A program made the translations under genes and the position numbers. From IMG/VR virus record IMGVR_UViG_2711768036_000007: DNA of 39,927 nucleotides; one strand, written 5' to 3'. The notes beneath the pieces are model-generated. The model ran no database searches, was not told the origin of the DNA, and saw only the letters and a program-made list of their open reading frames with translations. Each line of letters begins with the position of its first letter. The stretch's first letter is position 1. Source of the DNA: a virus. Taxonomy: Duplodnaviria; Heunggongvirae; Uroviricota; Caudoviricetes. Below are positions 13,045-39,927 of the stretch, one piece after another.

Positions 13045-13117
13045 CCATCTACATCACTGAGCTTGTAACAGGCCTGCTGGTAATCGCAGGTCTTTTTATT
13101 TGGGGGAGAGGGAAGTC

Positions 13118-15875: not shown

Positions 15876-15884
15876 TAGAAGGTA

Positions 15885-17770: not shown

Positions 17771-17796
17771 GCCTCGCATTCGCGGGGCTTTTTATA
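17771..17796 (+). terminator. Rho-independent terminator after lysis cassette
   Basis: Hairpin GCCTCGC-ATTC-GCGGGGC followed by TTTTTA. Confidence 0.4.
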
Positions 17797-17937
17797 TCTG
17801 AATTTCACAGCGCATCTCACGCGCATATTAACGAGAGCCTTTCAGTAAGCGAGCCTGAGAAATGCCGTTATAGGTGGCGACCTCTCTCGGGCGGCTTTTC
17901 TGTGAGACAGGCTCACTTTCTAAAAGGTAAAGACGCT

Positions 17938-18456: not shown

Positions 18457-18739
18457 CCATTCCAAAGCCAATCTACTGGTGGGCTTGATAATGAAACCGT
18501 GATTTACATCCCCACAATCCGGGTATGTAAAAGATAGTTCAGGCGAGAACAGATTTAACTAAATCTGTGCACCACCAGTTACGGCAGTACCACGAAACAA
18601 CCCAAGCCAGTAAGTGGGGAAATAACACTGGCAGACACTGAAAGATGAACCTCCAGCCTTATGGCAAAAAAGATTCTTTGTGGTGTCTGACTGATGGAAA
18701 GACATCCTAATCAAGCAACCACTCTACAGGGTCATAATT

Positions 18740-19120
18740 ATGAACGACCAGCAAATCGAAAAAGAAATCGTTGAGAAAGGCAAAACCGCTCCGAGAATCA
18801 CTCCGCAGCACATCGAAGACGTGATTAAAAGCGAGCATTACTTTACTGCTTATGATGGACGTAATGGTGCCATTTCCAGCAACGAATATTGTGGCAGGGA
18901 AAAACCAGAAGAAGGCGATCGTGATTTATCACCATTGAAGTTGCTCACTTTCTGCGTACTGGTGCTGAAGAATGGCTTCACCGTCACCGGAGAGAGTGCC
19001 TGTGCAAGCCCGGAAAACTTTGATGCAGAAATTGGTCGGAAGATTGCCCGGCAAAATGCTGTAAACAAAATCTGGATGCTCGAAGGTTACTTGCTGAAGC
19101 AGAAGCTAAGCGAACAGTAG
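18740..19120 (+). CDS. Hypothetical protein (possibly N4 Gp49 / Sf6 gene 66 family)
   Basis: 126 aa ORF between lysis and packaging genes; family call is unverified recollection. Confidence 0.4.
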   Translation: MNDQQIEKEIVEKGKTAPRITPQHIEDVIKSEHYFTAYDGRNGAISSNEYCGREKPEEGDRDLSPLKLLTFCVLVLKNGFTVTGESACASPENFDAEIGRKIARQNAVNKIWMLEGYLLKQKLSEQ

Positions 19121-19223
19121 TTATTACAAAAGCCATTCCCTACAGAGTGGCTTTGATAATGGCTTATACCCTACACGGGATAACTTAACTGATATCCCTT
19201 TTAACGGATAAACGGAGCCAACA

Positions 19224-19466
19224 ATGGCAGAGATTATTCCCATGACTGAAGAACAGAAATTCCAGTTAGAGATTTACAAGCTGGTCATGAACCAGAACGC
19301 AGCCGCAGAAGAAGCATTTCAATTCATCGGCACTGACGAGTTGAAGCTTGAGCTATTCAAAATTCACTTCCAGTCAGGTGGCGCTAATTCAGATATCACG
19401 ACCCGCACTATCGAAGCGGTGCGTAAATCGAAGGAAGCGTTAGACCTGTTCACTACCGGAGCATGA
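19224..19466 (+). CDS. Hypothetical protein, 80 aa
   Basis: ORF in track, upstream of terS. Confidence 0.45.
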   Translation: MAEIIPMTEEQKFQLEIYKLVMNQNAAAEEAFQFIGTDELKLELFKIHFQSGGANSDITTRTIEAVRKSKEALDLFTTGA

Positions 19467-19467
19467 T

Positions 19468-19647
19468 GTGAGCCGCGTAATCAATTTGGGTAAGGAGAAG
19501 AAATTCCCAATTACTCAAGAGCTATACGAGCGGCTGGAAAGCGTCATCCATGATTACGATGGCGAAATCAGTTTATGCGAGGCGATTGGCACACTCGAAT
19601 TGCTGAAGCAGTCACTGATTGAAGGCGCGAAAGAGTCCTCAACCTGA
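19468..19647 (+). CDS. Hypothetical small protein, 59 aa, GTG start
   Basis: Hand-translated (VSRVINLGKEKKFPITQELYERLESVIHDYDGEISL...); starts 1 nt after upstream stop. Confidence 0.35.
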   Translation: MSRVINLGKEKKFPITQELYERLESVIHDYDGEISLCEAIGTLELLKQSLIEGAKESST

Positions 19648-19670
19648 AATGATAATTAAGTGAGATGAAT

Positions 19671-20159
19671 ATGGCAGCACCAAAGGGCAACCGATTTTGG
19701 GAGGCCCGCAGTAGTCATGGGCGAAATCCTAAATTCGAATCGCCTGAGGCGCTGTGGGCTGCTTGTTGTGAATACTTCGAGTGGGTAGAAGCTAACCCGC
19801 TATGGGAGATGAAGGCGTTCTCGTATCAGGGTGAAGTGATACAAGAGCCTATCGCCAAGATGCGAGCGATGACCATTACCGGCCTCACTCTGTTCATTGA
19901 TGTGACGCTTGAAACATGGCGCACATATCGCCTGCGAGAAGATTTATCTGAAGTCGTTACGCGAGCAGAACAGGTCATCTACGACCAGAAATTCTCTGGC
20001 GCAGCCGCTGACCTTCTCAACGCTAACATCATCGCCCGTGATTTGGGCCTCAAAGAGCAGTCGCAAGTTGAAGACGTGACACCTGATAAGGGAGATCGCG
20101 ATAAGCGACGCTCTCGTATCAAGGAGCTATTCAACCGTGGAACTGGACGCGATTCTTGA
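19671..20159 (+). CDS. Terminase small subunit (P22 gp3-like)
   Basis: [48 protein letters not shown] matches P22-type TerS; 162 aa from second ATG. Confidence 0.85.
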
Positions 20160-21636
20160 TAACCTGAGCGACGAAGAGCAAATCGAGTTGCTCGAGCTAC
20201 TCGAAGAAGAAGAGAACTACCGGAACACACACCTGCTATATGAATTTACGCCATACAGCAAACAGCGTGAGTTCATCGACGCCGGGCATGACTATCCAGA
20301 GCGCTGTTTTATGGCTGGTAACCAGCTTGGTAAGTCATTTACTGGTGCTGCTGAAGTCGCGTTTCACCTTACAGGGCGTTATCCGGGCACAAAAGGCTAT
20401 CCTGCTGATGGTAAATATGGCGGTGAGTGGAAAGGTAAGCGTTTCTATGAGCCTGTTGTCTTCTGGATTGGCGGCGAGACAAACGAGACTGTAACCAAAA
20501 CGACTCAACGCATCCTGTGCGGTCGTATCGAAGAGAATGATGAGCCTGGCTACGGTTCCATACCGAAAGAAGACATCATTAGCTGGAAGAAGTCTCCTTT
20601 CTTTCCGAACCTTGTTGATCATCTTCTGGTTAAGCATCACACGGCTGATGGCGTTGAAGATGGCATTTCAATCTGCTACTTCAAGCCATACTCGCAAGGC
20701 CGTGCTCGCTGGCAGGGTGACACAATCCACGGCGTGTGGTTTGACGAAGAGCCACCATACAGCATTTATGGCGAAGGTCTTACCCGTACCAACAAATACG
20801 GGCAATTCTCAATTCTGACGTTTACCCCGCTGATGGGGATGTCTGACGTTGTTACCAAGTTCCTGAAGAGTCCCAGCAAGTCGCAGAAAGTGGTCAACAT
20901 GACCATCTATGACGCTGAGCACTACACCGACGAGCAGAAAGAGCAAATCATCGCATCCTATCCTGAGCATGAGAGAGAGGCGCGTGCTCGCGGTATTCCT
21001 ACGATGGGTAGTGGTCGAATCTTCCAGATACCGGAAGAGACGATTAAGTGTCAGCCGTTCGAGTGTCCTGATCACTTCTACGTAATTGGCGGGATGGATT
21101 TCGGATGGGATCACCCACAGGCGCAGGTTCAGCTTTGGTGGGATAAGGACGCAGACACAATCTACGTTTCACGCGTGTGGAAGGCGAAAGAAAAAACAGC
21201 CGTTCAGGCGTGGGGAGCAGTTAAATCATGGGCGCATAAAGTGCCAACCGCATGGCCTCATGACGGAAACCAGCACGAGAAGGGCGGCGGTGAGCAGCTC
21301 AAAGGGCAGTATGCAGATGCTGGTTTTATGATGTTGCAGGAGCATGCGACATGGCCTGATGGCGGTAATGCTGTTGAGCCTGGCATCACTGAATTGCGCG
21401 ACATGATGCTCGATGGTCGCTTCAAAGTATTCAACACCTGTGAGCCATTCTTTGAGGAGTTCCGCCTCTATCACCGTGATGAAAACGGGAAAATCGTCAA
21501 GCTTAACGACGACGTGCTATCCGCCGTTCGCTATGCATACATGATGCGCCGCTTCGCAAAAATGATGCGCGACATCAAAAAACCAAAAGAGAAAAAGATA
21601 CCAGCCCCAATCAGGCCCATCGCACGGAGAACTTAA
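20137..21636 (+). CDS. Terminase large subunit (P22 gp2-like)
   Basis: 499 aa; Walker A-like [10 protein letters not shown]; position and length as P22 gp2. Confidence 0.9.
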
Positions 21637-23802
21637 ATGGCCGACGAAAACAGACTCAATTCCATTCTGTGTAAGTTTGACGCGGACTGGATGGCGAGCG
21701 ATGAAGCCAGAACCGAGGCGACAAATGACCTGTATTTTAGCCGAGTGTCGCAATGGGATGACTGGCTATCAAACTACACGACCCTGCAATATCGCGGACA
21801 ATTCGATGTTGTTCGCCCGGTGGTCAGGAAACTGGTCGCAGAGATGCGCCGGAACCCTATCGACGTTCTCTTTCGACCCAAAGACGGCGCTAATCCTGAT
21901 GCAGCCGATGTGTTGATGGGGATGTATCGTACTGATATGCGCCATAACACGGCAAAAATTGCCGTTAACGTTGGCGTTCGTGAGCAGATAGAGTCCGGCG
22001 TTGGTGCATGGCGTCTGGTCACGCAGTACGAAGACAACGATCCAACAAGCAACAATCAGGTAATTCGACGCCTGCCAATTCATGAAGCCTGCTCACACGT
22101 CATATGGGACGCCAACAGCAAGCAGATGGATAAGAGCGACGCTAAGCACTGCACGGTGATTAACGCTTTGTCACGCAATGGCTGGAAAGAGTTCGCAGAG
22201 GATTACGGTATTGATCCGGATACCTTGCCATCTTTCCAGAATCCGAACGACACATGGCTGTTTCCGTGGGTATCGAATGATGTCGTCTACGTCGCTGAGT
22301 ATTACGAGGTCGAAGAGAAGAAAGAGAAAGTCTTCATCTACCGCGACCCGCTGACAGGTGAGCCGGTCAGCTATTACCAGCAGGATATCAAAGACGTCAT
22401 CGACGACCTGGCTAATCGTGGATACATTAAGGTAGCAGAGCGTAAGGTGAAGCGTCGGCGTGTATATAAGTCGATCATCACCTGCACGCAGATACTGAAA
22501 GACCGCGAGAAGATAGCTGGAGAGCATATCCCAATCGTTCCAGTGTATGGCGAATGGTCATTCGCTGGTGACAAGGAGTGCTACGAAGGAGTGGTAAGGC
22601 TGACGAAAGACGGTCAACGCCTTCGTAACATGATCATGTCATTCAACGCCGATATTGTTGCTCGTTCACCGAAGAAGAAACCGACCTTCTTCCCTGAGCA
22701 AATCGAAGGCTACGAATACATGTACGGTGGAAATGATGACTATCCGTACTATCTGCAGAACAGGACCGATGAAAACGGTAACGACCTGCCGATTGGTCCA
22801 ATCTCCTACATGGAAAACCCTGAAGTGCCGCAAGCCAACGCTTACATGCTTGAGGCTGCCACCAACGCAGTGAAAGAGGTGGCTAGTCTTGGCGTGGATG
22901 CGCAGGCGGCAAATGGTCAGGTCGCTTTCGATACCGTCAATCAACTGAACATGCGGGCAGACCTTGAGACATACGTGTTTCAGGATAACCTGGCTACCGC
23001 AATGCGACGTGATGGCGAGATTTATGCCTCAATGGTCAATGATATTTATGACGTTCCTCGTCATGTAACGCTGACACTTGAAGATGGAAGCGAGAAAGAC
23101 GTTCAACTCTATGCGCAAGTTGTCGATTACCAGTCCGGCAATGTGGTCACACTCAACGACATTCGCGGTCGCTATGAGTGCTATACAGACGTAGGACCAT
23201 CCTTCCAGAGTATGAAGGAACAGAACCGCGCAGAGATTCAGGAGTTGCTCACCAAGGTTCCGCAAGGTACTCCAGAGTTCCAGATGCTGATGCTGCAATA
23301 CTTCACGCTGCTTGACGGTAAAGGCGTCGAGATGATGCGAGAGTACGCGAACAAGCAACTGGTGATGATGGGGCTGAAGAAACCAGAAACACCTGAAGAG
23401 ATGGAGATGGTACAGCAGGCTCAACAGCAGCCGCAGCAGCCATCAGCAGAGCAAATTCAGGCGCAGGGTATCCTTCTGCAAGGTCAGGCTGAATTGCTCA
23501 AGGCAGAGAACCAACAGGCGCAGATTCAGGTTGAAGCCGCCAAGGTTGAAGCCCAAAACCAACTCAACGCCGCGAAGATTGCAGAAATCTTCAACAATAT
23601 GGACCTCGACAAGCAGGCAGAACTGCGTGAGTACCTCAAGCTCGTAGGTCAATTCCAGCAACAGCGCAGCAAAGATGCTCGTGCTAACGCTGAGCTGCTT
23701 CTTAAAGATGCAGACCAGACTCATTCACAGCGCATGGATTTCGCGAATCTTATGCGTCAAGTTCAAATCCCCTCCGGCGGAGTAGCCGAGACACCTCAAT
23801 AA
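21637..23802 (+). CDS. Portal protein (P22 gp1-like)
   Basis: 721 aa with Gln/Ala-rich C-terminal helix, as in P22 portal. Confidence 0.9.
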
Positions 23803-23815
23803 GAGAGAGTTAATC

Positions 23816-24727
23816 ATGGACCAAACCACCGACATTCAGGCTTCTGAAGAATTAACACTGCCCGGCAATCATGCAGCGGCATCTGCTGATGGCTTAGTTG
23901 TCGATAATGCCAACGACAACGCAGGTCAGGAAGAAGGCTTCGAGATTGTCCTGAAAGACGATGAGAAACCAAAACAAGACCCGGCAACTAATGCTGAATT
24001 TGCCCGTCGCCGCATCGAACGCAAACGCCAGCGTGAGCTTGAGCAGCAGATGGAAGCGGTTAAGCGTGGAGAGTTGCCGGAGCACCTGCGGGTGAACCCT
24101 GAGTTACCAAAACAACCAGACCCTAACGATTATCTTTCCGAAGACGCACTGGCTAAGTACGACTATGACCAGAGCCGAGCACTGGCTGCCTTCCAGCAGG
24201 CAAACAGTGAATGGCAGATCAAGGCTATGGACGCACGAAGCCAGGCTGTAGCCGAGCAGGGCCGCAAAACTCAGGAGTTCACCCAGCAATCAGCGCAATA
24301 CGTCGAGGCAGCCCGTAAGCACTACGACGCAGCGGAAAAGCTCAATATCCCTGACTATCAGGAGAAAGAGGATGCATTCATGCAACTGGTGCCGCCAGCA
24401 GTCGGTGCCGACATCATGCGCCTCTTCCCGGAGAAATCCGCTGCTCTCATGTATCACCTTGGTGCTAATCCTGAGAAAACACGCCAGTTGCTGGCGATGG
24501 ACGGGCAATCCGCGCTGATTGAACTCACTCGACTGTCAGAACGTTTAACTCTCAAGCCTCGAGCCAAACCTGTTTCAGAAGCCCCGCTACCTGATGAACC
24601 CATTCAGGGACACGCTGTTGCTGCAAATATATCTGCGATTGAAAAGCAGATGGAAGCGGCAGCAAACAAAGGGGATGTAGAGACATACCGCAAGCTCAAG
24701 GCGCAACTGAATAAAGGAATTCGATAA
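23816..24727 (+). CDS. Scaffolding protein (P22 gp8-like)
   Basis: 303 aa, highly charged helical; same length and position as P22 gp8. Confidence 0.8.
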
Positions 24728-26022
24728 TGGCATTAAATGAAGGTCAACTGGTCACGTATGCTCTGGATGAAATCATCGAAACCGTCCAGAACCTGACGCC
24801 AATGGCGTCCAAAGTGACAAAATACACCCCTCCGGCAGAATCCATGCAGCGTTCAAGCAACACCGTGTGGATGCCTGTTGAGCAGGAAGCGCCAACGCAG
24901 ACTGGCTGGGATTTAACTGGCAACGCAACCGGGATTCTGGAGCTCTCCGTGAAATGCAACATGGGCGATCCGGATAACGATTTCTTCGAGCTTCGTGCAG
25001 ATGACCTGCGTGATGAGCGTTCTTACCGTCGCCGCATTCAGGCATCAGCCAAAAAACTGGCGAATAACATTGAGTCAGCGATTGCCAAACAGGCAACTGA
25101 AATGGGCTCGCTTGTTGTTCACGATACCCGCGCAATTGGTCCATCTACTGGCCTGTCTGGCTGGGATTTTGTGTCTGATGCAGAGCGCCTGATGTTCTCC
25201 CGAGAACTCAACCGCGACATGGGCATCAGTTACTTCCTGAACCCTGACGATTACCGCAAAGCAGGCCGCAACCTGGTAGATGGTGACATCTTCGGTCGCG
25301 TTCCTGAAGAAGCGTATCGCAACGGTACTATTCAGCGTCAGATTGCTGGCTTTGATGAAATTCTTCGCTCACCGAAACTTCCGGCAGTTACCAAGTCAAC
25401 CGCTACTGGTGTAACTGTTTCTGGTGCGCAGAAGTTTAAGCCGCAGGCATACACCCTTGATACCGATGGTAACAAAGAGAACGTCGACAACCGTGTTGCA
25501 ACGGTGACCGTATCCTCCACCACCGGATTTAAGCGCGGCGACAAAATCAGTTTCACTGGTGTGAAATTCCTGTCTCAGATGGCGAAGAACGTGCTGACTG
25601 ATGATGCTACTTTCTCAATCACCCGTGTGATCGATGGTACTCACATCGAAATCACGCCGAAGCCTATTGCGCTGGATGACGCGTCACTGACAAAAGAAGA
25701 GAAGGCTTACGCTAACGTAAACACCTCTCTTGCTGATGCCACTACGGTAAACGTTCTGAACGTGGCAACAACCACCGCTAACGTGTTCTGGGCTGATGAC
25801 TCAATCCGTCTGCTGTCTCAGCCGATCCCGGTAACCCATGAACTGTTTGCTGGCATGAAAACGTCTTCCTTCAGCATTCCTGGTATTGGTGTTAACGGCA
25901 TCTTCGCAACGCAGGGTGATATCAATACTCTGTCTGGTAAGTGCCGTATTGCTGTGTGGTATTCAGCATGTGCTGTACGACCAGAGGCAATTGGTGTTGG
26001 TCTGCCTAACCAGACCGCGTGA
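24727..26022 (+). CDS. Major capsid (coat) protein (P22 gp5-like)
   Basis: [27 protein letters not shown]... closely resembles P22 coat as I recall it. Confidence 0.9.
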
Positions 26023-26066
26023 TAACCAGAGGGAGCTTCGGCTCCCTTTTTTATCTGGAGACAAGC

Positions 26067-26297
26067 ATGACACACATGATCTTTCGTCATGGCGACATGA
26101 AGAAGTGGAAAGGCGTTGGCTACGACTTTGAAATTGTGAAAGCCGAAGAGATTCAGGAATATCTGGATGCTGGTTGGTTTGCACATCCCGATGACCTTCT
26201 GAAGGACGTTGCGGAGCCAGAGCCAGAAGAAAAGCAGCGTAAAAAGCCTGGTCGAAAACCTAAGGCGGCAGCAGATGAACCTGACAACGAAGGGTGA
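26067..26297 (+). CDS. Hypothetical small protein between coat and gp4, 76 aa
   Basis: From internal Met with GGAG RBS; lysine/proline-rich C-terminus; overlaps gp4 start. Confidence 0.45.
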
Positions 26298-26775
26298 TTT
26301 AGTTCTTGCGGCATTACGTAAGCTCGGTGTGGCATCAAATGCCACGTTAACCGATGTCGAACCGCAGTCTATGGAAGATGGCGTCAACGACCTTGAAATG
26401 ATGATGGCTGAATGGCTTGGCGGTGATGCGTCACCAGGTATCAACGTTGGCTACATTTTCGCTGATGTAGATGTCGCTCCAGATCCTGGCGATGAACACG
26501 GTTTATCAAATAACGCTATCAATGCCGTCATTTTCAACCTTGCCTGCCGCATTGCTCCGGATTATGCGCTGGAAGCGCCTGCAAAACTTATAACCACTGC
26601 CAGATACGGGAAAGAGCGACTCGTCAAACTGTCTGCAATGGACAGAGCAAAAGCCGCTAAATGTAAGTCCGGTTATCCAAACCGTATGCCTGTTGGTAGT
26701 GGTAACCAGTTGGCGAAGTGGAACGGTTGGAATTACTTCCACCGGAAGGAACCTTGCGATAACGGGAGCGAATAA
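26275..26775 (+). CDS. Tail accessory / head completion protein (P22 gp4-like)
   Basis: From internal Met: 166 aa, [29 protein letters not shown] resembles P22 gp4. Confidence 0.8.
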
Positions 26776-28194
26776 ATGCCGATTCAGCAACTTCCGCTTA
26801 TGAAAGGTGTCGGCAAAGATTTTCGAAACGCCGACTATATCGACTATCTGCCAGTGAATATGCTGGCTACACCCAAAGAAATCCTGAACAGCAGCGGATA
26901 TCTTCGCTCATTCCCGGGCATTGCCAAACGTTCTGATGTGAACGGTGTATCTCGCGGCGTCGAGTACAACATGGCGCAGGGTGCTGTTTATCGCGTGTGT
27001 GGTGGCAAGCTGTACAAAGGAGAAAGTGAAGTCGGTGATGTTGCCGGAAGTGGTCGCGTATCAATGGCGCATGGTCGAACATCACAGGCGGTAGGCGTTA
27101 ACGGGCAACTGGTCGAATACCGCTATGATGGCACGGTTAAAACCGTCTCAAACTGGCCTGCAGACAGCGGGTTTACGCAGTATGAGTTAGGTTCGGTTCG
27201 TGATATTACGCGCTTACGTGGGCGTTATGCGTGGTCAAAAGACGGTACTGATTCATGGTTCATCACTGACCTTGAAGACGAATCACATCCTGACCGATAC
27301 AGCGCACAATATCGTGCAGAATCGCAGCCTGACGGCATCATCGGAATCGGAACATGGCGAGACTTCATCGTCTGCTTTGGTTCATCGACTATTGAATATT
27401 TCTCCCTGACTGGCGCAACCACCGTTGGTGCTGCTTTGTATGTCGCACAGCCATCATTGATGGTGCAAAAAGGCATCGCCGGGACTTACTGCAAAACGCC
27501 ATTCGCTGATTCTTATGCGTTCATCAGCAATCCGGCAACAGGTGCGCCGTCTGTATATATCATCGGCTCCGGTCAGGTATCACCAATCGCCAGCGCGAGC
27601 ATTGAGAAAATACTACGCTCCTACACTGCTGATGAACTGGCTGATGGCGTGATGGAATCGTTGCGGTTTGATGCTCATGAGTTGCTGATTATTCACCTGC
27701 CGCGCCATGTTCTTGTTTACGACGCATCTTCAAGCGCCAATGGTCCGCAATGGTGTGTGCTGAAAACAGGCTTGTATGACGATGTGTACCGCGCTATCGA
27801 CTTCATTTACGAAGGCAATCAGATAACGTGCGGCGATAAGCTGGAATCTGTTACCGGGAAATTGCAGTTCGATATCAGCAGCCAGTACGACAAGCAACAG
27901 GAACATCTGCTGTTTACTCCACTCTTCAAAGCAGATAACGCCAGAGTTTTCGACCTTGAGGTTGAATCGTCAACTGGCGTTGCGCAGTACGCTGACCGCC
28001 TGTTCCTCTCTGCAACCACTGACGGCATCAATTACGGTCGTGAGCAGATGATTGAGCAGAATGAACCGTTCGTTTACGACAAGCGCGTTTTGTGGAAGCG
28101 AGTAGGGCGCATAAGGAAAAATGTTGGCTTCAAATTGCGCGTTATCACGAAGTCACCTGTAACTCTGTCTGGTGCTCAGATAAGGATTGAGTAA
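26776..28194 (+). CDS. Tail accessory protein (P22 gp10-like)
   Basis: 472 aa, same length and position as P22 gp10. Confidence 0.8.
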
Positions 28195-29042
28195 TGGCGG
28201 ATTCATCACTGAATAATCCTGTCGCGGTTCAGGCTACGCGCCTTGATGCTTCAATTTTGCCACGCAATATATTTAGCCAGTCTTACCTGCTGTATGTCAT
28301 AAATCAAGGTGCTGATGTCGGCGCAATTGCCGGGAAGGCAAATCAGGCTGGTCAGGGCGCTTACGATGCTCAGGTGAAAAACGATGAACAGGATGTGATT
28401 CTCGCTGACCATGAGCAGCGAATTTCTGCTGCGGAAGCAACGCTTGTTAATCATGAGGAGCGAATCAGCCAGGCAGAATCAACTCTTCAGGACCATGAAA
28501 CACGAATAGCTCAGAATGAAAGCGATATTGCGTCGCTTGACACAAGAGTTCAGTCGCTGGAATCGCAGGTTTCAGACCATGAAACGCGCATCGATGCTCT
28601 GGAGTATGCCACTACTCGCAAGAAGTCAGAGGTTGTTTACTCTGGCGTATCTGTAACCATCCCGACAGCGCCGACCAACCTTGTTAGCCTGCTGAAAACG
28701 CTCACGCCGTCATCCGGCACGTTGGCACCATTCTTCGACACCGTTAACAACAAGATGGTTGTGTTCAACGAGAACAAAACCTTGTTCTTCAAGCTGTCGA
28801 TCGTCGGGACGTGGCCCAGCGGAACCGCCAACAGGTCAATGCAGCTAACCTTTTCCGGCTCTGTTCCTGATACGCTGGTCAGCAGTCGTAATGCGGCGAC
28901 AACAACCGACAACATCCTGTTAGCTACATTCTTCAGCGTGGATAAAGACGGATTTCTTGCCACAAATGGCAGTACGTTAACCATTCAGTCGAATGGTGCG
29001 GCGTTTACTGCCACAACCATCAAGATAATCGCGGAGCAGTGA
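28194..29042 (+). CDS. Tail needle (P22 gp26-like) with extended C-terminal domain
   Basis: N-terminus [35 protein letters not shown] resembles gp26; 282 aa, longer than P22 gp26, C-terminal part non-helical. Confidence 0.8.
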
Positions 29043-29497
29043 TGATTCAGTTCAAACCAACGCGAAACATCGACCTGATCGAAGCAGTCGGAAATCACCC
29101 TGACATTATCGCTGGTAGCAACAACGGTGATGGATACGACTACAAACCTGAATGCCGTTACTTTGAGGTGAACGTGCACGGGCAGTTTGGCGGCATTGTT
29201 TACTATCAGGAGATTCAGCCGCTGACCTTCGATTGCCACGCCATGTACCTGCCAGAGATTCGCGGCTTCAGCAAAGAAATAGGGCTGGCGTTCTGGCGAT
29301 ACATTCTGACTAACACCACCGTTCAGTGCGTCACATCGTTCGCTGCACGCAAATTCCGCCACGGGCAGATGTACTGCGCAATGATTGGCCTTAAGCGTGT
29401 AGGAACCATCAAGAAATACTTCAAAGGCGTGGATGACGTGACGTTTTACAGCGCCACACGCGAAGAACTAATCGACTTCCTGAATCACGGGAGATAG
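29039..29497 (+). CDS. gp14-like head/injection accessory protein
   Basis: Positional inference (between needle and ejection proteins). Confidence 0.5.
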
Positions 29498-29499
29498 CC

Positions 29500-30192
29500 A
29501 TGTTATATGCATTTAAGCTGGGCAGAAAACTGCGCGGCGAGGAACCTTATTGCCCTGAAAAAGGCGGGAAAGGTGGTAGCTCTGATAAAAGCGCAAAGTA
29601 TGCCGCAGAAGCTCAGAAGTATGCAGCAGACCTGCAAAATCAGCAGTGGCAGACGATCATGAAAAACCTTGCTCCGTTCACGCCTCTTGCGGAGCAGTAT
29701 GTTAACCAGCTTCAGAACCTTTCCAGTTTAGAAGGTCAGGGGCAGGCACTTAATCAGTATTACAACTCTCAGCAGTATAAAGACCTTGCAGGTCAGGCTC
29801 GTTACCAGAGTCTTGCTGCTGCGGAGGCTACGGGAGGACTTGGTTCGACAGCCACAAGCAATCAACTGGCTACGATCGCGCCGACTCTCGGTCAGTCTTG
29901 GTTATCAAACCAGATGAGCAATTACAATAATCTGGCAAACGTTGGGCTTGGTGCGCTGCAAGGTCAGGCAAACGCCGGGCAGACGTACGCCAACAACATG
30001 AGCAGCATTGCACAGCAAAGCGCAGCACTTGCCGCTGCTAATGCCAATAAACCATCAAGCCTTCAGACTGCCATTAGCGGCGGCACGTCTGGTGCGATTG
30101 CCGGTGCAGGTCTTGCCAGCCTTTTGGGAACATCAACGCCTTGGGGCGCTGGCATTGGTGCTGGTATCGGATTGCTTGGCTCGTTGTTTTAA
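29500..30192 (+). CDS. Ejection protein (P22 gp7-like)
   Basis: 230 aa, Gln/Ala/Gly-rich with hydrophobic C-terminus; position as gp7. Confidence 0.65.
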   Translation: MLYAFKLGRKLRGEEPYCPEKGGKGGSSDKSAKYAAEAQKYAADLQNQQWQTIMKNLAPFTPLAEQYVNQLQNLSSLEGQGQALNQYYNSQQYKDLAGQARYQSLAAAEATGGLGSTATSNQLATIAPTLGQSWLSNQMSNYNNLANVGLGALQGQANAGQTYANNMSSIAQQSAALAAANANKPSSLQTAISGGTSGAIAGAGLASLLGTSTPWGAGIGAGIGLLGSLF

Positions 30193-30201
30193 GGGGTAAT
30201 C

Positions 30202-31533
30202 ATGGCTACTTGGCAAGGAACAAACGGCGGATTGTTGGCTGGTATCGGCGGCGTCAACTCAAACGCTCCGAGCGCAAATGACATCGGCAATACGCTTCAG
30301 TTTATCAGGCAGAACAATGATATTGAGCGTTCAGGCGCTAACAATGTTGGGCTGACTGCTTTGCAAGGTCTTTCAGGTATTGCAGGGGTGTTTCAGCAGG
30401 AAAAGCAGGCTCAGCGGCAGAAAGAATTTCAGCAGGCGTACGCTAATGCTTATGCGTCTGGTGATCGCGGTGCTTTGCGTCAGTTGGCTACTCAATATCC
30501 AGACCAGATTGAATCCGTTCGTAAAGGCATGGGATTCATTGATGAAGAGCAGCGTAATTCTATCGGCACCTTAGCGGCTGGCGCACGCCTTGCGTCATCG
30601 TCTCCAGAAGCAATGCAATCATGGCTGCAAAACAACGCCGGTGAGTTAGCTCGTGTTGGCGTTAATCCTCATGACGTCGCTCAGATGTACCAACAGAACC
30701 CGCGGCAGTTCGGCGAATTTGTCGATCACCTGGGGATGAACAGTCTCGGGCCCGAAAAATACTTTGACCTACAGGATAAAATGCAGGGTCGCCAGGTTAC
30801 CATGCGCGGTCAGGATCTGGATTCGCAAACCGCCGCTCGGAATCAGGCAATCACAATGCGCGGACAAGATATCCAGGCGAATTTAGGTCAGCAGCGCATT
30901 AATCTGGACGCAGAAACAAACCGCATTAACAACGAAAATAAGCGCCTTGACCGGATGCTATTAGCAGAAACTAACGACCTGAAGCGCCAGGAAATACAGA
31001 GCCGCATAGCAGCCAACAACCAGCAGTTGCAGCAGAAGCAGCAAGCGCTAAATGATGGCTACAAAGACGGCATCAACACCCTCACAACCAGCATGTTCAC
31101 TCTGAACGATATCGTTAGTTCTCCTTCACTTAAGAGCATTACAGGCTTACGTGGAGTAATCCCCAACGTTCCAGGCTCACAGGCTGCAGACACTCAGGCA
31201 CGACTTGATACCTTTAAATCCCAAGCATACCTGACAGCGGTTCAGGCCATGCGAGGCATGGGCGCACTTTCTGATGCCGAGGGCAAAAAGCTCGACCAGG
31301 CTGTTGGTTCGCTGCAGAACTCGCAGAGCGAGGAGTCCTTTCGTCGCAACGCTGGCGTCATCCTGAACACGCTCAACCAGAAGCGTAATGAGGCGGTTGG
31401 TAAGTACGTTCAGCAAAACGGTATCAAGCGAGTGGAAGCGCCTCAGGCTTCTATAGATTACCTGAAGCAGCACCCCGAGCTGTCAATCGACTTCATTAAT
31501 CGCTACGGATATCTTCCATCTTTGGGGCAGTAA
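30202..31533 (+). CDS. Ejection protein (P22 gp20-like)
   Basis: 443 aa, position as gp20. Confidence 0.65.
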   Translation: MATWQGTNGGLLAGIGGVNSNAPSANDIGNTLQFIRQNNDIERSGANNVGLTALQGLSGIAGVFQQEKQAQRQKEFQQAYANAYASGDRGALRQLATQYPDQIESVRKGMGFIDEEQRNSIGTLAAGARLASSSPEAMQSWLQNNAGELARVGVNPHDVAQMYQQNPRQFGEFVDHLGMNSLGPEKYFDLQDKMQGRQVTMRGQDLDSQTAARNQAITMRGQDIQANLGQQRINLDAETNRINNENKRLDRMLLAETNDLKRQEIQSRIAANNQQLQQKQQALNDGYKDGINTLTTSMFTLNDIVSSPSLKSITGLRGVIPNVPGSQAADTQARLDTFKSQAYLTAVQAMRGMGALSDAEGKKLDQAVGSLQNSQSEESFRRNAGVILNTLNQKRNEAVGKYVQQNGIKRVEAPQASIDYLKQHPELSIDFINRYGYLPSLGQ

Positions 31534-34161
31534 ATGGCTAATTACCGTGATTTGTTAGAGCAGGCTGGCGCACGTTACGGTGTGCCAGAAGGGTTGATGA
31601 CTGCACTGGGTGCCAAGGAGTCTTCTTACAACCCTGCCGCAGTAAGCTCCGCCGGGGCTGTAGGATTGACTCAGGTCATGCCTGGGACATGGCGTGATAT
31701 GGGTTATACCGATGAGCAAATGCAAAACCCCGAATATCAGGCTGACGCTGGCGCGCGCTATCTGGCAAAGATGTACCAGCAGTTTGGTAACTGGCGTGAC
31801 GCTCTTCAGGCTTATCACGACGGTCCCGGCAACGTTATGAAGGCAAAGCGTGGTGAATATACGCCAGGACCTGAAGGCCGCGGTTACGTTGATGATCGCT
31901 TTGCTCAATGGGCGGGTGACCCGGTGACAGACTCAACAGTCGAACAGCGCGCCACCTCTGCAAAGGTACATCCTCAGCAAGACCCTAACAACCCGTTTGC
32001 ACAACTGGAAGTACAGTCATCCGAACAAGTATCAGCATCAGGTGTGCAGTCAGACCCAAATAATCCATTTGCTCAGATTGAGCAGCAGGCAGCCAGTCAG
32101 CAGCCACCTCAACCCGTAAGTTCTGTCGCACCGAAACCTGTTCAGCAACAAACAGTTAATCAGGCCAATAATGAACCAGCACGTGAAGAACCATCATTGA
32201 TGCAACAAGCTGGCGATTGGCTCACAGGTGGTCAAAGTGCAGGGCAAATTGCAGAGCAGGCTGGTCGTGGTCTGGTAAACATACCATTCGACGTATTACA
32301 GGGCGGCGCAAGCCTGATTAATGCAATCAGTCAGGGGCTTGGTGGCCCCAAGGTTTTGGATGATGTTTATCGCCCTGTCGATCGACCGACAGACCCTTAC
32401 GCACAAGCCGGTGAAACAATTGGTGGGTATCTCCTGCCAATTGGCACAGCGGCAAAAGCTGCTGGAGCGACAGCAAAGCTCGCAGGAGACATCGGTTCCG
32501 CAGGAAACATGATTGCCGGTTCTCTTGCTGATGCTGCAAATCAGGAGGGTGATTTTGCACAAAATGCTGCCATTAACGGTGGTATCAATATTGGTGCTCA
32601 AGGCGTTATTTCAGGTGTCGGGCGCGTTATTGCGCCAAGGGTTTCACAGGCTCTTGGTGGTGCAGCACTGAATTCTGCTAATGATGTTTCCAGGATGGCA
32701 AAGTCAGGTGCTGGGCGTCAGTCAATTGCCAGTCAGGCCGCTAATGTGTCCGAAGATGTAGCAAAAGCGGCTGAGTCTGCTGGAATTGATATAAACGCAT
32801 TAACACCAGGAATGCGATCTGGAAGTCGTGGAATTGCACAAGCCGAAGGCGCATTGGCATCAACACCAGGGATTGTTCAGGATGCCCATCAGGCAGCATT
32901 TAACGAAATATCATCAAAGTTAAGTCGAAACCTTGATGAATTTGGGGCCGCATCTGGAACGGCATCAGAAAAAAGTGCGGCTATAAAACAAAGGATTCTT
33001 CAAAATCTTGATCAGATGAAGGATGCTGAGCGCGCGGCATGGGATGACGTGCGGTCAACAATGCCAAATCAAAAAGCAAGAATGCTAAATGGTAATGCCG
33101 TTATTCAGGCAGAGCGATCTGCTGGCATACCGCTTACTCCTGAAATGAAACAGTTTGTTCAGGCAAACAATCAAGGTGGAGTAACATTTGATGGCATGAA
33201 AGCATGGAGAGCGAAATTTGCTGATGCGGAGCAAAAATATAAGCGTAGCGGAGAGGTAAATGCGGCAAGGAGAGCAGGGGAAATACGTCGGGCAATTACT
33301 GATGATATGCGCACAATGGCGGAAAACGGCGGATTTTTTGATGACTGGCAAAAAGCTAATGATCTGTCTAAAGCGAGGCTATCCGCACAAGAGAGTGCAG
33401 AGTCTGTTTTTGGGCGTGATTTGGCAACAGATGCACTGATTACGAATGGAGTAAAATCTCTTCAATCATCGTCAGCTAAAGGTCTTAATGGTCCTGCTGG
33501 ATTCCATTCTATGATCCGCGCGCTGCCAGAATCAGAGCGCGTTCCTGCTATATCATCAATGTTGCAGGATGCTATCTCGCATGGTGTACGTGGTGGCAAA
33601 TCTGATGCAGCAGGAATTAACCATATCGCAGGGATACTTACCCCACAAAATGTAAAAGCCATTAGCAGATATTCCTCAGAACTTGGAAGAATTGCTGATG
33701 CATATGGCACTCTTGCAAGAGCAGCAGTGAAACCTCAGCAGTATATTGAAAGAACAGGGAGAACTGCCAATGTACTACGCGATCTGGATGCTGGTTTATC
33801 CAACGTCACATCAACAGTGTTAAATGCAATTGCCAACTCAACATCAGGTGCCATTGTTGGTGGCGCTGGAGGGGGTATTGCAGGCGCTGCCGCGGGTGCT
33901 TTAGTTGGCGCCGGGTTAAAAGGCGCTGTATCTAAAATTGCCACCACACGTAGTGGTCGATATGCGATAGAGAAAGCTGTTCAGGAAGCCACCAAAGCAG
34001 TAAGAGCAGGCGGAAGCAAAGAAGCATTAGCGGCGGCGGAACGCAGATTTATAGCAAATAAAGCCGCCGTAAAAGCAATACGCGATGCTATTGGTAGCGA
34101 TGAATTCAATCGCTTGTCGAGAGCTGGTATTGTCGCCTCGTTAAGCGGTATGAATGAATAG
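31534..34161 (+). CDS. Ejection protein (gp16 position) with N-terminal lytic transglycosylase (SLT) domain
   Basis: 875 aa; N-terminal GAKESSYNP...[10 protein letters not shown]...YHDGPG resembles SLT domain. Confidence 0.65.
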
Positions 34162-34163
34162 CT

Positions 34164-34649
34164 TTATCTAATGTTGCTGCTACTGTTGCATGTGACGGTG
34201 TTTCCAAATCCTGAATTGCAGTTTGTATATGTGTCAACGCGCGTTGGGTAAGGTTGAGTTATAACAGGCTGGCGCGCTTTTTGCTCGATCGCTTGCATTG
34301 TGTTTACAGCCTGATAATTCAACAAAGCCTGCTGGAATGCTTGGCTTTGTGCTATTTGTTGGGCTTGTTCTTGGCTTTGTAATTGAACATAAAGATTCTG
34401 AAGCTCAAGTCTTGCCTGTGCGTCACTTATCTTGCCTTCATCGACACCTTGCCCGAGCATCTTTGCAGCAAGGACATACAGCTTAGGTGTTGGTGCTGAT
34501 GCCATGCGTGAGTCGTTCTTCACACTGGCATCAAGGCAATTAGCCATATCGCTAAGCTTTTGATAGCGTTGTTCGCAACTTGCTTGATAGTCACTTACTT
34601 TTGCGCATCCAACCAGCAGAAGCGGGATAATTAACAGTGATTTTTTCAT
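34164..34649 (-). CDS. Lipoprotein, Gln-rich, at the sieA position downstream of mnt
   Basis: From internal Met with AAGGAG RBS: signal MKKSLLIIPLLLVGC (lipobox LVGC); 161 aa; converges on end of ejection gene. Confidence 0.65.
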   Translation of the reverse strand: MKKSLLIIPLLLVGCAKVSDYQASCEQRYQKLSDMANCLDASVKNDSRMASAPTPKLYVLAAKMLGQGVDEGKISDAQARLELQNLYVQLQSQEQAQQIAQSQAFQQALLNYQAVNTMQAIEQKARQPVITQPYPTRVDTYTNCNSGFGNTVTCNSSSNIR

Positions 34650-34719
34650 ATGGTTAACTCTCCTTAGTTTTTCACAGGATATCATGAAGGCAATGCCATT
34701 TTAGCCGGAAACTAGATTT

Positions 34720-34986
34720 CTATGTTTCCTTTTTATTATTGATATACATGGTCTTAAGCGTTTCAAAAACCATTTTCTTAACCATATCAGATTGTTGTTC
34801 TGCTATACGCTCTGCATCGTCAATGTAAACGGATGCAGAGCTTTGTTTAGCCAATGATTCTTCAATCGCTGCAATTATCTCTGAGTTCAGCGACCTGTTA
34901 TTCATCTTTGCACGCTGTTTAATTTTCGCGTGGAGTTCATGCGGAAGTCTCAAGTGAAACTGCGCCTCGTCGTATTTGCTGTACAT
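34720..34986 (-). CDS. mnt: Mnt-like repressor (ribbon-helix-helix, Arc/MetJ family)
   Basis: From internal Met: FHLRLPHELHAKIKQRAKMNNRSLNSEII...DDAERIAEQQSDMVKKMVFETLK resembles P22 Mnt (NDAERLADEQSELVKKMVFDTLK). Confidence 0.7.
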   Translation of the reverse strand: MYSKYDEAQFHLRLPHELHAKIKQRAKMNNRSLNSEIIAAIEESLAKQSSASVYIDDAERIAEQQSDMVKKMVFETLKTMYINNKKET

Positions 34987-35121
34987 CCGTGATGCCTCAC
35001 CAGTTGGGTGGAATGGCATCGTAAAACCTACTGTACAAATCAACAATCGTACCATTTCGGTATGTAACAAATGCCAACCGTAGCCATGCTGCGGCGATTC
35101 CTTGTATCTGGAGCAAATTAA

Positions 35122-37359
35122 ATGACAGACATTACAGCCAATGTGATCGTATCAATGCCTTCGCAACTCTTCACTATGGCGCGTTCTTTTAAAGCCGTAG
35201 CCAATGGCAAAATTTATATCGGTAAAATTGACACTGACCCGGTAAATCCTGAAAACCAGATTCAGGTTTATGTAGAGAATGAAGACGGTTCTCACGTTCC
35301 TGTTTCTCAACCAATCATCATTAACGCTGCTGGTTACCCTGTATATAACGGACAGATTGCCAAATTCGTTACCGTGCAAGGCCATTCTATGGCTGTTTAT
35401 GATGCGTATGGTGCACAGCAGTTCTATTTTTCGAATGTGCTGAAGTATGACCCTGACCAACTCAGGCAAGATCTTGCATCTCAAGGAGGTGTTAATCTGG
35501 TAAACGGAGCTATCTCACAGGAAGATCTTGTTTTGCAGTCGATCACAAAAATTCCAAGTTATGATAATTCTAACGTAGTCCAGGCGTGGCGCGATAGTGT
35601 TGCGACCTACGGGTATGTTTACTTCTCTAATCATTCAAAAAATCAGATGGTGTACACCGTACCGTCTACAGCTGCTAACGCTTCTTTCCTTGCGAACAGT
35701 AAAGTAATCATTGATAAAAATGTCACCCTGAGATTCGACAGTGATCTGTACTCACTGTTTAAATCGTTGCAGTACGAGGGGGAGGGTACGTTTGAATTTA
35801 CGCACCTGAACTTTAAAGCAACCGGTGGAGAAGTGGATTATCTGGCTAAGCAGGCCATCCTCAACCGAAACCCTATTCGCATGAAGCGAGTGGAATGGTC
35901 AGATTGTAAAGTTTATTCCATAAATGGTGACACGTTCTTCTATGAAGGTGAAGTCACCATATCCTCAGATAGCGCAGCTATCTTCCCCTTAACTACTGAC
36001 CGTACAACAGGCCTGTTCGCACCAATAGATATTGGAGAGCATATTTCTGCACATATTCGTATGGAATCTCAGGCCGCCTCAGAAGTTGGGATTGTTCTGC
36101 GATGCTCTGGTGGTTGGATGATGTTCTATGGGGCACCAGGTGCTACACAGTGGTCTTATAGACAGAAACCAATTGGTGGTCCAGTAGCAGAAGGAACTCC
36201 ATTCCCGCTGCCAGGAGGTTTACTGTCGTACGCCCCGGGCAAAGCAACCGTTGGCGTATCACTGCAAGGTAAAAACTGGGCGCAGATAACGATGAATGGC
36301 GTTGGGATACGCTTGCCCTTTGATACTGCTGATGTAGGGGATGTATACGAAGTTGGGTTTGTTGCACTGACCCCGGCATCTGGAGGTTCTGCGCGTGTAA
36401 CTGGATTATGCAGCTACACCTCTGATAATGGTGTGCACGGTAAGCCTCCACTTAATATCCTTATCCACGGTGATAGTACAGCTGAGGATTTCATTTCCGC
36501 GTTCAGCTCGTACATTCCGCAATTAATGGATGGAGCGAACGGCCACCGTTCACATAGCATTGTAAACAAGGCAGTTGCCGGACAGACAATGAGGCAACAG
36601 TTAGATCTCCTGAAGGCTCAGGGGCCGGGTGATGCTTACATCGTTATTATGGTTGCCGGAACTAACGAAGGGCAGGCAAACCAAAACGGCGATTATATGG
36701 CGGCACTGATAGATGAGTTTGTCTTATATTGCAATGGCCTTGGTCGTATCCCTGTTTGGGTTGAGCCGTGGATGTGGTATAGCCAGTCATTTATTGGCGG
36801 TGCTGGTCAACCATCAGCAAATTACGATGGTGTTGCGGAGTTACGCGAGGCTGGTAAACGCCAGATGATGAAATATGGCAATAACGTCATTTGTGTAACA
36901 ACAACTCACCAGCTCCCGGCCCCATATCCAGAGTATTTCAACACGCAATACGACCCACTTCTGCGTGATGACATTCACCAAAGCCAGTTAGGGTATCGTC
37001 TGTATGCGGAAATTATCTGCTCTGCCATTATCGACTGGTGGTCGCGTGTTGATTACACGCCAAGAGCAGCTGTTCAATGGTGGGCTGGAACAAACGTAAC
37101 AGTACAGGAACCGTCAAGTTTAACTGCCAATTCAATTAATATTAAACTGGCAGCCACTTCATTTGCGAATGGCAATACTGTTCTAACGCTTCCGAGGTGG
37201 TGCAGACCAAAAGTAACCAAAAATGTCCCTGTACCGTTCACTGCTGATGGCGTTTCATTTGGCATGGCAATGGCCACCATTAATGCTTCAACAGGACAAA
37301 TATCGATTGAAGGGTCCACCACTACATCTCCAACGTTCTACATAGATGCGACATGGTAG
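35122..37359 (+). CDS. Tailspike: P22-type N-terminal head-binding domain fused to a domain with SGNH-esterase signature
   Basis: N-terminus [43 protein letters not shown] resembles P22 gp9; downstream blocks IHGDS, VAGQT, GTNE, DDIHQS fit SGNH blocks I, II, III, V. Confidence 0.8.
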
Positions 37360-37365
37360 TAAAAA

Positions 37366-37388
37366 CATGGAGGCAATACGCCTCCATG
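37366..37388. terminator. Perfect 8-bp hairpin between tailspike and int (U-run only for leftward transcripts)
   Basis: CATGGAGG-7nt-CCTCCATG; A-run upstream on plus strand. Confidence 0.4.
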
Positions 37389-37567
37389 CTAATAACTCAA
37401 ATGCTCTTAAAATACTCTTAAGGAGATGATCAGCGCTTTTATTAACATCAACCATCTATGTGCGTTATAGGTTAATTATCTCCATGTGATGGCAGACAAA
37501 ACTGAGACACACAAAGCTTTGCACTGGATTGCAAGGCTTTGTGCTCTTAGATAGTAGTTAAGGTGGA

Positions 37568-38761
37568 TCACTCCACCTTCCCATCAAGCCATTCCGCCCA
37601 CCACTGCATCATTTCTCTGCGCTTATCTAGATACTGAGCATGGTTGTAAATCCCGCGCACAGATCCGCCGTTGGCATGTGCAAGTTGCACTTCAATAGCG
37701 TCAGCAGGCCATTCGTGCTCGTTCATAATCGTGCTGAATTCATGCCTGAATCCGTGACCGCTTTCCAGACCCTCATAGCCGATTTGTTTAATCACAAGTA
37801 GCACCGCGTTCTCGCAGATTGGCTTCTTCTTATCGTTGCGTCCGGCAAAAACAAACTCTGATACTGGTTTGGTGATTGAGCTTAGCGTAGTGAGAAGTTC
37901 AACCACCTGGTCTGACATAGGAACCACATGAATTTTGCGTCCCTTCATCACACTGGCGTCGATAGTGATAATCCTGTTTTCAAAATCGACGTTCTTCCAT
38001 TGCATGGAACGAAGCTCTTTCGTTCTTAGGGCTGTGTAGCGTAAAACTTTGGTCGCAATGAGCGATACGATGCTTCCTGAAAATGTTGCCAGTGCTTTGT
38101 TGAATGCCGGGATCTGGTCTGCAGGAAGAAACGGGAAGTTCTTCTTGCGGTATCCCTTCATGGCGTCAGCAAGGTCAGGTGCCGGGTTATATTTAGCCCT
38201 TCCGGTGACAATAGCGTAACGGAAAACCTCGCCGCATCTTCTGCGTGCTTTGTTGGCTCGCTCCATTGCACCGCGATCTTCAAATCTGCGGATTACTTCC
38301 AGCAGTTGCATCGGCTCAATATCCTGAATCTCAAGACCGCCGATGATGGGTAAAATGTCGTCATCAAACATTTTTGCAAGTTCAGTCGCATACCCTACTG
38401 ACCAGACTTGCTTCTTGTGTTCGTACCATTCCTTGTAAATTGCACTAAAGGAATTGTTGTTAGACGAAGCCTTTTTCGCTTTTACCGGATCGATGCCAAC
38501 CGAGATGTCTTTCCTCGCAGTCCATGCTTTATCCCTTGCCTCCTGCAAAGTCATAAGCGGATATTTTCCTACGGTCAGGATTTTCTCCTTACCGTCAATC
38601 TTGTAGCGAAGCTGCCATACCTTTTTCCCTGACACAGGGACATAAAGGTACAGGCCATTACCATCGAGTAGGCGGTATGGTTTTTCTTTCGGCTTTGCTG
38701 CTTCAATCTGCTTAACGGTGAGCATGGGTAAAAATCCGGTGGGTAAAATTATTTTATCCAC
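37568..38761 (-). CDS. int: Tyrosine integrase (P4-type)
   Basis: 397 aa; C-terminal catalytic region with HGFRHEF and Y motif; next to att core and tRNA remnant. Confidence 0.9.
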   Translation of the reverse strand: MDKIILPTGFLPMLTVKQIEAAKPKEKPYRLLDGNGLYLYVPVSGKKVWQLRYKIDGKEKILTVGKYPLMTLQEARDKAWTARKDISVGIDPVKAKKASSNNNSFSAIYKEWYEHKKQVWSVGYATELAKMFDDDILPIIGGLEIQDIEPMQLLEVIRRFEDRGAMERANKARRRCGEVFRYAIVTGRAKYNPAPDLADAMKGYRKKNFPFLPADQIPAFNKALATFSGSIVSLIATKVLRYTALRTKELRSMQWKNVDFENRIITIDASVMKGRKIHVVPMSDQVVELLTTLSSITKPVSEFVFAGRNDKKKPICENAVLLVIKQIGYEGLESGHGFRHEFSTIMNEHEWPADAIEVQLAHANGGSVRGIYNHAQYLDKRREMMQWWAEWLDGKVE

Positions 38762-38770
38762 TTTTTACCC
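38726..38770. promoter_or_regulatory. Putative integrase arm-type repeats (GGGTAAAA x2 and TTTTACCC) overlapping int 5-prime end
   Basis: Same octamer as at 1764..1783. Confidence 0.4.
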
Positions 38771-38886
38771 GTCATGGAGTGCGGCTGTCAACGATCTGAC
38801 GCGAACCATTACGAACTGTGAATCTACGGAAGGCTTGATATTCAGGGGATTTTGCGGACTGGTACGGATGGGAGCGAACTGATAAA

Positions 38887-38901
38887 TGGTGTCCCCTGCA
38901 G
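38887..38901. repeat. Right attachment-site core (direct repeat)
   Basis: Exact 15-nt match to 1690..1704. Confidence 0.7.
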
Positions 38902-38919
38902 CCATTTAACTAAGAGGAC
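38887..38919 (-). tRNA. argW: argW tRNA-Arg(CCU) remnant: 5-prime 18 nt fused directly to 3-prime 15 nt (central ~42 nt absent)
   Basis: Minus strand reads GTCCTCTTAGTTAAATGG + CTGCAGGGGACACCA; both ends match argW as I recall it, but 33 nt cannot form a tRNA. Confidence 0.4.
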
Positions 38920-38994
38920 AATGCGGCATGAGTATACCCGCTAATGGACTGCGGGGTAAGTACGCTGCCGCTCGATTGCTTAAACCCTCGCCAT

Positions 38995-39927
38995 TTATGC
39001 TGGGTTTTTATCATTTTTCTTAATGTTTTCCGCACGTTCTGCTTTTTGGCGTGCTTCTGCTTTACGCTTGTTGCTCATGTCGTTACGAATCTGTGCATGA
39101 CTCATTAACGCGAAGATAAAGGTGCCGCCGCAGATGTTCCCCGCTAAAGTAGGTAGTGCGAAGGGCCAGATGAAATCGCTCCAGTGCAGCGTGCCGTTAA
39201 ACACCAGATAGAGGATTTCAACAGAACCGACAACGATGTGGGTGGTGTCACCCAGTGCAATAAGCCAGGTCATCAATATAATCACCACAATCTTTGCCGC
39301 ACCCGCAGCAGGAAACATCCAAACCATAGTGGCGATCAGCCAGCCGGAAATGATCGCGTTGGCAAACATCTCGCTGGGGGTGTTCTTCATCACATCCATG
39401 CCGATTTTGACAAATGCATCGCGAGTTTCTTCATTGAAGATAGGCATATATTCAAATGCCCATGCAGCAATACCTGTCCCGAGAATATTACCCAGCAGCA
39501 CGACGCCCCATAATCGCATAAGTAAGCCGACGTTGCTCATTGTCGGTTTTTGCATGACGGGTAGTACCGCAGTCACGGTGTTTTCGGTAAATAATTGCTG
39601 GCGGGCCATAATGACGATAATAAAACCAAAGGTATAACCGAGATTCTCCAGTAAGAAGCTGCCTGGCACTCCTTCCAGTTCGACATGAAATATCCCTTTT
39701 GCCAGTAGCGAAGCGCCCATCGACAGACCCGCCGCAATGGCTGACCACAGTAGCGCCATTGCGTCGCGTTCCAGCTCTTTTTCACCATCCTGGCGGATAT
39801 GCTCATGAATTGCCATCGCCCGGGAGGGGAGTCGGTCTTCATCTATTTCTATTTTTTTGCCGCGCTCTTTTTCTTCGCTCTCAACTTCAATTTCGTCGCT
39901 GTGTTGATCAATTTTGTCGTTGTCCAT
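38995..39927 (-). CDS. yfdC: Formate/nitrite transporter family inner-membrane protein, host gene
   Basis: 310 aa; matches my recollection of E. coli YfdC, which neighbours argW. Confidence 0.8.
   Translation of the reverse strand: MDNDKIDQHSDEIEVESEEKERGKKIEIDEDRLPSRAMAIHEHIRQDGEKELERDAMALLWSAIAAGLSMGASLLAKGIFHVELEGVPGSFLLENLGYTFGFIIVIMARQQLFTENTVTAVLPVMQKPTMSNVGLLMRLWGVVLLGNILGTGIAAWAFEYMPIFNEETRDAFVKIGMDVMKNTPSEMFANAIISGWLIATMVWMFPAAGAAKIVVIILMTWLIALGDTTHIVVGSVEILYLVFNGTLHWSDFIWPFALPTLAGNICGGTFIFALMSHAQIRNDMSNKRKAEARQKAERAENIKKNDKNPA

Follow-up and report, generated by a model that had tools for sequence, protein, structure and literature searches.

The window, meaning the whole stretch of 39,927 nt that was analysed, begins at base 1 with the ATG of an oligosaccharide MFS transporter gene and ends at base 39927 with the ATG of yfdC, the start codons of two genes belonging to the chromosomal flanks; its limits were evidently set by gene coordinates in an annotated assembly. 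Between them lies an Sf6/HK620-type prophage with the integrase gene close to one end and an excisionase gene close to the other, and the integrase end abuts what is left of the tRNA gene argW (Table 1). The prophage encodes terminase, portal, scaffold and coat proteins, tail proteins of the gp4, gp10 and gp26 types, ejection proteins, and a tailspike of 745 aa. The tailspike gene (35122–37359, plus strand) specifies a P22-type head-binding domain; the exact sequence of the protein occurs on only 4 contigs, and its receptor-binding part looks uncommon. One of the ejection proteins (31534–34161, plus strand; 875 aa) is gp16-like and carries an SLT lytic transglycosylase domain (PF01464 and PF26808), and the exact protein was present on only 7 contigs in a large collection. 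Between its gene and a Mnt/Arc-type repressor gene, in an immI-like region, is a minus-strand ORF of 161 aa (34164–34649) that has no Pfam match and could be a moron or exclusion gene.

Table 1. Positions of the prophage, its attachment sites, the argW remnant and the flanking genes in the 39,927 nt window.
Feature	Position	Strand	Basis or remark
Oligosaccharide MFS transporter gene, chromosomal flank beyond attR	1..1248	+	
attR core, second exact copy of CTGCAGGGGACACCA, followed by chromosomal DNA	1690..1704	-	
Sf6/HK620-type (P22-like, Lederbergvirus) prophage, about 37.2 kb, structural genes complete-looking	1705..38886		
Excisionase/RDF, TorI/HkaC homologue, 66 aa	1778..1978	-	100% identical to HK620 HkaC
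intS-type tyrosine integrase, 385 aa	37568..38725	-	Pfam Arm-DNA-bind_3, Phage_int_M, Phage_integrase
attL core, the last 15 nt of argW, CTGCAGGGGACACCA	38887..38901	-	Alignment; published core
argW remnant, 33 nt, nt 1–18 fused to nt 61–75	38887..38919	-	Alignment; tRNA finders negative
argW 5′ part kept: acceptor-stem 5′ strand, nt 8–9, 5′ D-stem, first 5 D-loop nt	38902..38919	-	Alignment
yfdC–argW intergenic region with argW upstream/promoter region	38920..38994	-	100% identical to intact references
yfdC, formate/nitrite transporter family, chromosomal flank upstream of argW	38995..39927	-	PF01226

The prophage is bordered by two exact copies of the 15-mer CTGCAGGGGACACCA, both on the minus strand (38887–38901 and 1690–1704), compared with 0.04 expected by chance. 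The core of the window, CTGCAGGGGACACCA(T), is the same as the published core of KplE1, HK620 and Sf6, and the attP core annotated in the records of HK620 and Sf6 is CTGCAGGGGACACCAT. The KplE1/CPS-53 element at argW is bordered by the same duplicated 16-nt core (PMC2951348), and the IntS/TorI module is conserved among phages integrating at argW (PMC3509656). The attP of the phage was predicted by placing the core between the phage DNA on its left at attR and the phage DNA on its right at attL; the resulting sequence is contiguous in Sf6, HK620, HF4s, IME10 and others at 96–98% identity (97–98% for Sf6 and HK620). The P′ arm of attL and the int promoter region (38726–38886) are intact and identical to the reference, and attR is canonical, consisting of phage arm, core and chromosomal flank, with none of the bases missing from argW. 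Judged by its sequence, the locus is an ordinary Sf6/HK620-type lysogen apart from the lesion in argW. A crossover inside the core should regenerate full argW at attL.

On the minus strand, 38919–38902 reads GTCCTCTTAGTTAAATGG, which is nt 1–18 of argW, and this is fused without a spacer to nt 61–75 of the same gene (CTGCAGGGGACACCA, 38901–38887). A first-pass annotation of this DNA had proposed that the 5′ 18 nt of argW are joined directly to its 3′ 15 nt, that about 42 nt of the centre are missing, and that the 3′ 15-mer doubles as the att core, and all three proposals proved accurate to the base. When the 221 nt around the junction were aligned to the intact yfdC–argW–intS region of E. coli S56 (locus L001), where argW is the annotated tRNA-Arg at 1282–1356 and has 75 nt rather than 33, the missing block was exactly 42 nt, ATATAACGAGCCCCTCCTAAGGGCTAATTGCAGGTTCGATTC, corresponding to argW nt 19–60. 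This gap is the sole difference over the 221 nt and, because all of the other alignment columns are identical, chance is not an issue. Both termini match the orthologue: nt 1–18, nt 61–75 and the two flanks are 100% identical to S56 and lie in the yfdC–intS position. The end of the D-loop, the 3′ D-stem, the anticodon arm, the variable loop, the 5′ T-stem and the T-loop have been lost, together with the first C of the 3′ T-stem.

The junction, between 38902 and 38901, reads GTTAAATGG/CTGCAGGGG. The deleted block begins with A and ends with C, and the kept flanks end with G and begin with C, so the breakpoints are unambiguous and share 0 nt of microhomology. The right breakpoint coincides exactly with the left edge of the att core. 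Since the junction has neither a direct repeat nor microhomology, a repeat-mediated deletion, or the collapse of a repeat during assembly, is unlikely. Two other features of the junction may be recorded here. The att core starts with a PstI site (CTGCAG, 38896–38901, minus strand); an origin by PstI restriction cloning was considered and rejected because, in intact argW, the left breakpoint does not carry another such site. In addition, TAAATGG in the D-arm and CCATTTA at the core/P′ boundary constitute, on either side of CTGCAGGGGACA, an inverted repeat of 7 nt (38883–38908, minus strand), and the same arms are 54 nt apart in intact argW.

ARAGORN detected zero tRNA genes in the whole window and in the GenBank contig from which it comes (CXWX01000008.1, see below), and it called tRNA-Arg(cct) in two intact controls, the S56 locus and the sister assembly L012. 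Searches against Rfam gave no match in the window at the gathering threshold, and no tRNA match at E ≤ 10 in the local 401 nt. The argW remnant cannot encode a functional tRNA-Arg(CCU), in line with the first-pass annotation, and the tRNA finder reported no intact 75-nt tRNA-Arg in the window. The remnant is probably still transcribed because the upstream region is unchanged (the argW promoter is presumably within 38920–38994). For the 33-nt RNA, folding predicts a hairpin of 12 bp, made up of the acceptor stem and five weak pairs, from which a 3′ ACCA tail extends (−13.6 kcal/mol, z = −2.9). Recognition by ArgRS needs D-loop position 20 as well as the anticodon. The hairpin contains neither of these determinants, and for this reason it was not given a function, and the idea of a functional minihelix was rejected.

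Intact argW is the rule at this site. A full-length gene was found in all 12 comparison loci, and the exact 75 nt occur in 10 contigs that encode an identical integrase (L002–L011) and in L012, which shares the identical tailspike too. Among 5,426 complete E. coli genomes, with argW counted as present when at least 80% of the 75 nt was covered, the gene is intact in 5,425. The sole exception, E. coli HS-02 (NZ_CP172818.1), carries a different lesion: in this genome (locus L019, 2501–2560) argW runs to about nt 46 and continues directly as a truncated yfdM of a CPS-53 remnant, with loss of the core, intS and genes next to them. A query of 601 nt spanning the junction was covered to at least 80% by 1,711 complete genomes, and the best 30 of the matches listed aligned in two pieces spanning 643 nt (+42), with an annotated tRNA-Arg. 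The intact gene in other lysogens and in nearly all complete genomes bears out the earlier view that the truncated argW is not the normal product of integration at a tRNA 3′ end.

An unusual integration, either at a secondary site or by a phage with a shorter tRNA segment, would mean that attL never had the full argW, and the position of the lesion right beside the att core is compatible with such an event. However, all 42 of the missing nucleotides belong to the bacterial side, the attP predicted above is unbroken and 97–98% identical to that of Sf6 and HK620, and a crossover in the core would have restored argW to its full length, the state seen in each of the other lysogens examined. Secondary-site integration is excluded by attR, which is canonical and in which the missing bases of argW do not occur. 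Unusual integration is effectively refuted as an explanation, and we give it next to no credence.

The exact look-up of the tailspike led to contig CXWX01000008.1 of the draft assembly GCA_001268545.1 (locus L013), which has the identical 33-nt junction at about contig position 280.2 kb. Over its first 14,806 bases, L013 matches window positions 25122–39927 without a difference. The lesion therefore belongs to the public record and is not peculiar to the window. The distance between int and yfdC in this contig is 42 nt shorter than in the sister assembly L012. There are no Ns in either the window or the contig, and comparison of the 8,416-nt chromosomal flank beyond argW with L012 revealed 1 mismatch and 0 indels; local assembly quality looks good. 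A 39-mer query unable to seed on intact argW did not find the junction in the 5,426 complete E. coli genomes, and it was also absent from the GTDB species representatives, IMG/VR and the JGI metagenomes. When contigs were sought by exact match to the integrase, tailspike or gp16-SLT protein, the junction was recovered only in the same GenBank contig. Two Logan contigs with the same tailspike end short of argW. The Logan contig from SRR32390193 (3728 nt) encodes the identical tailspike and integrase; its end lies 52 nt upstream of the start codon of int, which leaves about 110 nt to argW. In the literature, a search with the accession GCA_001268545.1 returned no match.

We lean towards a real loss-of-function deletion of the single-copy tRNA-Arg(CCU) gene argW at attL in the GCA_001268545.1 isolate, and hold this to be modestly probable. 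It is favoured by the presence of the lesion in a deposited contig, by clean surroundings without Ns, and by a junction with zero homology. Weighing against it, the junction was seen in one assembly only among all that were searched, with no sign of inheritance, and loss of argW is very rare (intact in 5,425 of the 5,426 complete genomes).

These same observations, a junction confined to a single draft assembly and a gene that is intact almost everywhere else, including in all other contigs with the same integrase, would also be expected if argW of the isolate were intact and 42 nt had been lost in assembly or finishing, when two contigs ending at or near the att core were joined. The right breakpoint is the very base at which the attL and attP sequences diverge, and spontaneously excised phage DNA in the culture would cause a de Bruijn graph to branch at the edge of the att core. 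Such an error fits less well with a junction that has neither Ns nor homology, and with 8.4 kb of flanking sequence that is otherwise error-free. Overlap merging by scaffolders and gap closers needs an overlap of about 10–15 nt, and de Bruijn contigs contain only k-mers that are present in the reads. By reasoning from a simple de Bruijn-node model, the loss of 42 nt would require k = 58; Velvet and SPAdes accept odd k only, and k-mer bookkeeping was rejected as the specific cause because 58 is even. An artefact of assembly or finishing is a serious possibility, falling short of probable.

A deletion made on purpose can also be envisaged: argW could have been knocked out without a scar, for instance through oligo recombineering aimed at AGG reassignment. 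The blunt, homology-free deletion that spares both halves of the acceptor stem would suit such a design, and argW knockouts have been made in codon-reassignment work, but the published ones are whole-gene cassette replacements (PMC4652775). The window shows no marker, no FRT or lox scar, and no foreign or inserted base, and its flanks are 100% native. The host looks like a wild-type lysogen; it carries a full P22-like prophage, its flanks are closest to ETEC-type isolates, and the record belongs to a series of draft isolate assemblies. The lack of a scar, the context of a wild-type lysogen, and the origin from a draft isolate assembly make engineering very improbable.

A real loss of argW would be viable, since the gene is dispensable and argU also reads AGG: tRNA-Arg5 (argW, CCU) decodes AGG only, tRNA-Arg4 (argU, UCU) decodes both AGA and AGG, and argW is listed as dispensable, with lethality only in the argU argW double knockout (PMC4652775). 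HS-02 is a natural isolate without functional argW. The near-universal conservation of the gene (5,425/5,426) indicates that its loss is rare and probably mildly costly.

If the deletion is real, the phage would first have integrated normally at argW and the 42 nt would have been lost afterwards, the cell tolerating this with the argU tRNA-Arg(UCU) also reading AGG. The origin that we prefer is an aberrant IntS event, in which an illegitimate strand transfer would have taken place to a pseudo-site in the D-arm; alternatively, repair could have followed a break that IntS left at the crossover point. An aberrant IntS event of this kind would explain why the breakpoint lies exactly at the left edge of the att identity block. 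In phages that integrate into tRNA genes, the identity block is expected to extend from the start of strand exchange to the 3′ end of the tRNA, and in phage lambda, deletions promoted by Int that have one of their ends at the att crossover are a classical finding. On this reading the breakpoint would be the IntS cleavage site. The chance that one breakpoint falls on one specific boundary within a 75-nt gene is a few percent, making its coincidence with the core edge worth explaining, although not compelling.

Possible pseudo-sites were scored by comparing the left-hand 10 nt at each position within ±1 kb with the sequences that flank the core on the bacterial side (GGTTCGATTC) and on the phage side (AAGTAGATGT). 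At the left breakpoint these 10 nt are AGTTAAATGG, which in register agree with the bacterial half-site at 5/10 and with the phage half-site at 6/10 positions. By this score the breakpoint is 21st among all 1,999 positions and 2nd among the 50 that fall inside the tRNA, a weak and post hoc signal. The would-be overlap at the left breakpoint has 2/7 matches, the same as random. The reciprocal product of an unequal exchange, a 42-nt duplication junction, was absent from the complete genomes and metagenomes.

The deletion may also affect excision of the prophage. In vitro, an active attL substrate starts 20 nt left of the core, at the primer GCTAATTGCAGGTTCGATTCC (PMC3509656). All 20 of these bases are deleted in the window and D-arm sequence stands in their place, so that all of the native bacterial-arm DNA next to the attL core has been replaced through the deletion. 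Because a block of 15–16 nt cannot hold two core-type half-sites and a 7-bp overlap, the bacterial half-site probably extended into the DNA that is now missing, and IntS/TorI-mediated excision may be weakened as a result of this probable partial loss. The fullest version of events, in which the integrase promoted the 42-bp deletion, inactivated the only AGG-specific tRNA, and locked the prophage in by damaging attL, is in our judgement unlikely. If true, it would be a natural case of a phage recombinase harming its own tRNA target and ‘grounding’ an intact Sf6/HK620-type prophage.

As a real deletion, the locus would represent a rare natural loss of argW that could show the cost of AGG decoding by argU alone in the wild, and a natural attL mutant bearing on the length of bacterial arm that IntS needs in excision. 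As an artefact, it would show that the att junctions of prophages in draft assemblies can carry internal deletions that are clean, free of Ns, and open to being misread as tRNA pseudogenes. Either way, the practical consequence is limited, being a pseudogenised dispensable tRNA gene or an error in a draft assembly, and would be of little surprise to specialists.

Compared with the canonical attL of the IntS/TorI system (KplE1/CPS-53, HK620 and Sf6), the prophage occupies the same yfdC–argW site and has the CTGCAGGGGACACCA core at both ends; the integrase is of the same family, the P′ arm and int promoter region are identical, and the RDF is 100% identical to HkaC. It differs in that the bacterial arm is non-native, the 42 nt left of the core are gone, and argW is not reconstituted. 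The window and HS-02 both lack functional argW beside a prophage element integrated at argW, but the deletion in HS-02 is larger and one-sided, extending from the 3′ part of argW through the core and intS to yfdM of a cryptic prophage, whereas that of the window is an internal deletion of 42 nt that spares the core and an intact prophage.

The deletions promoted by lambda Int resemble the one described here in having one breakpoint at the edge of the att core and the other in nearby DNA of low homology. Those of lambda are kb-scale, lie inside phage genomes, and have been shown genetically to depend on Int, whereas the present deletion is 42 bp, lies in the host arm, and has a pseudo-site of weak similarity, with a role for Int that is proposed only. 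Laboratory argW knockouts share with the window the loss of tRNA-Arg5, and in these strains viability is kept by argU (PMC4652775). The knockouts, however, are whole-gene cassettes in engineered B or K-12 derivatives, while the window carries a scarless internal deletion in a wild-type lysogen.
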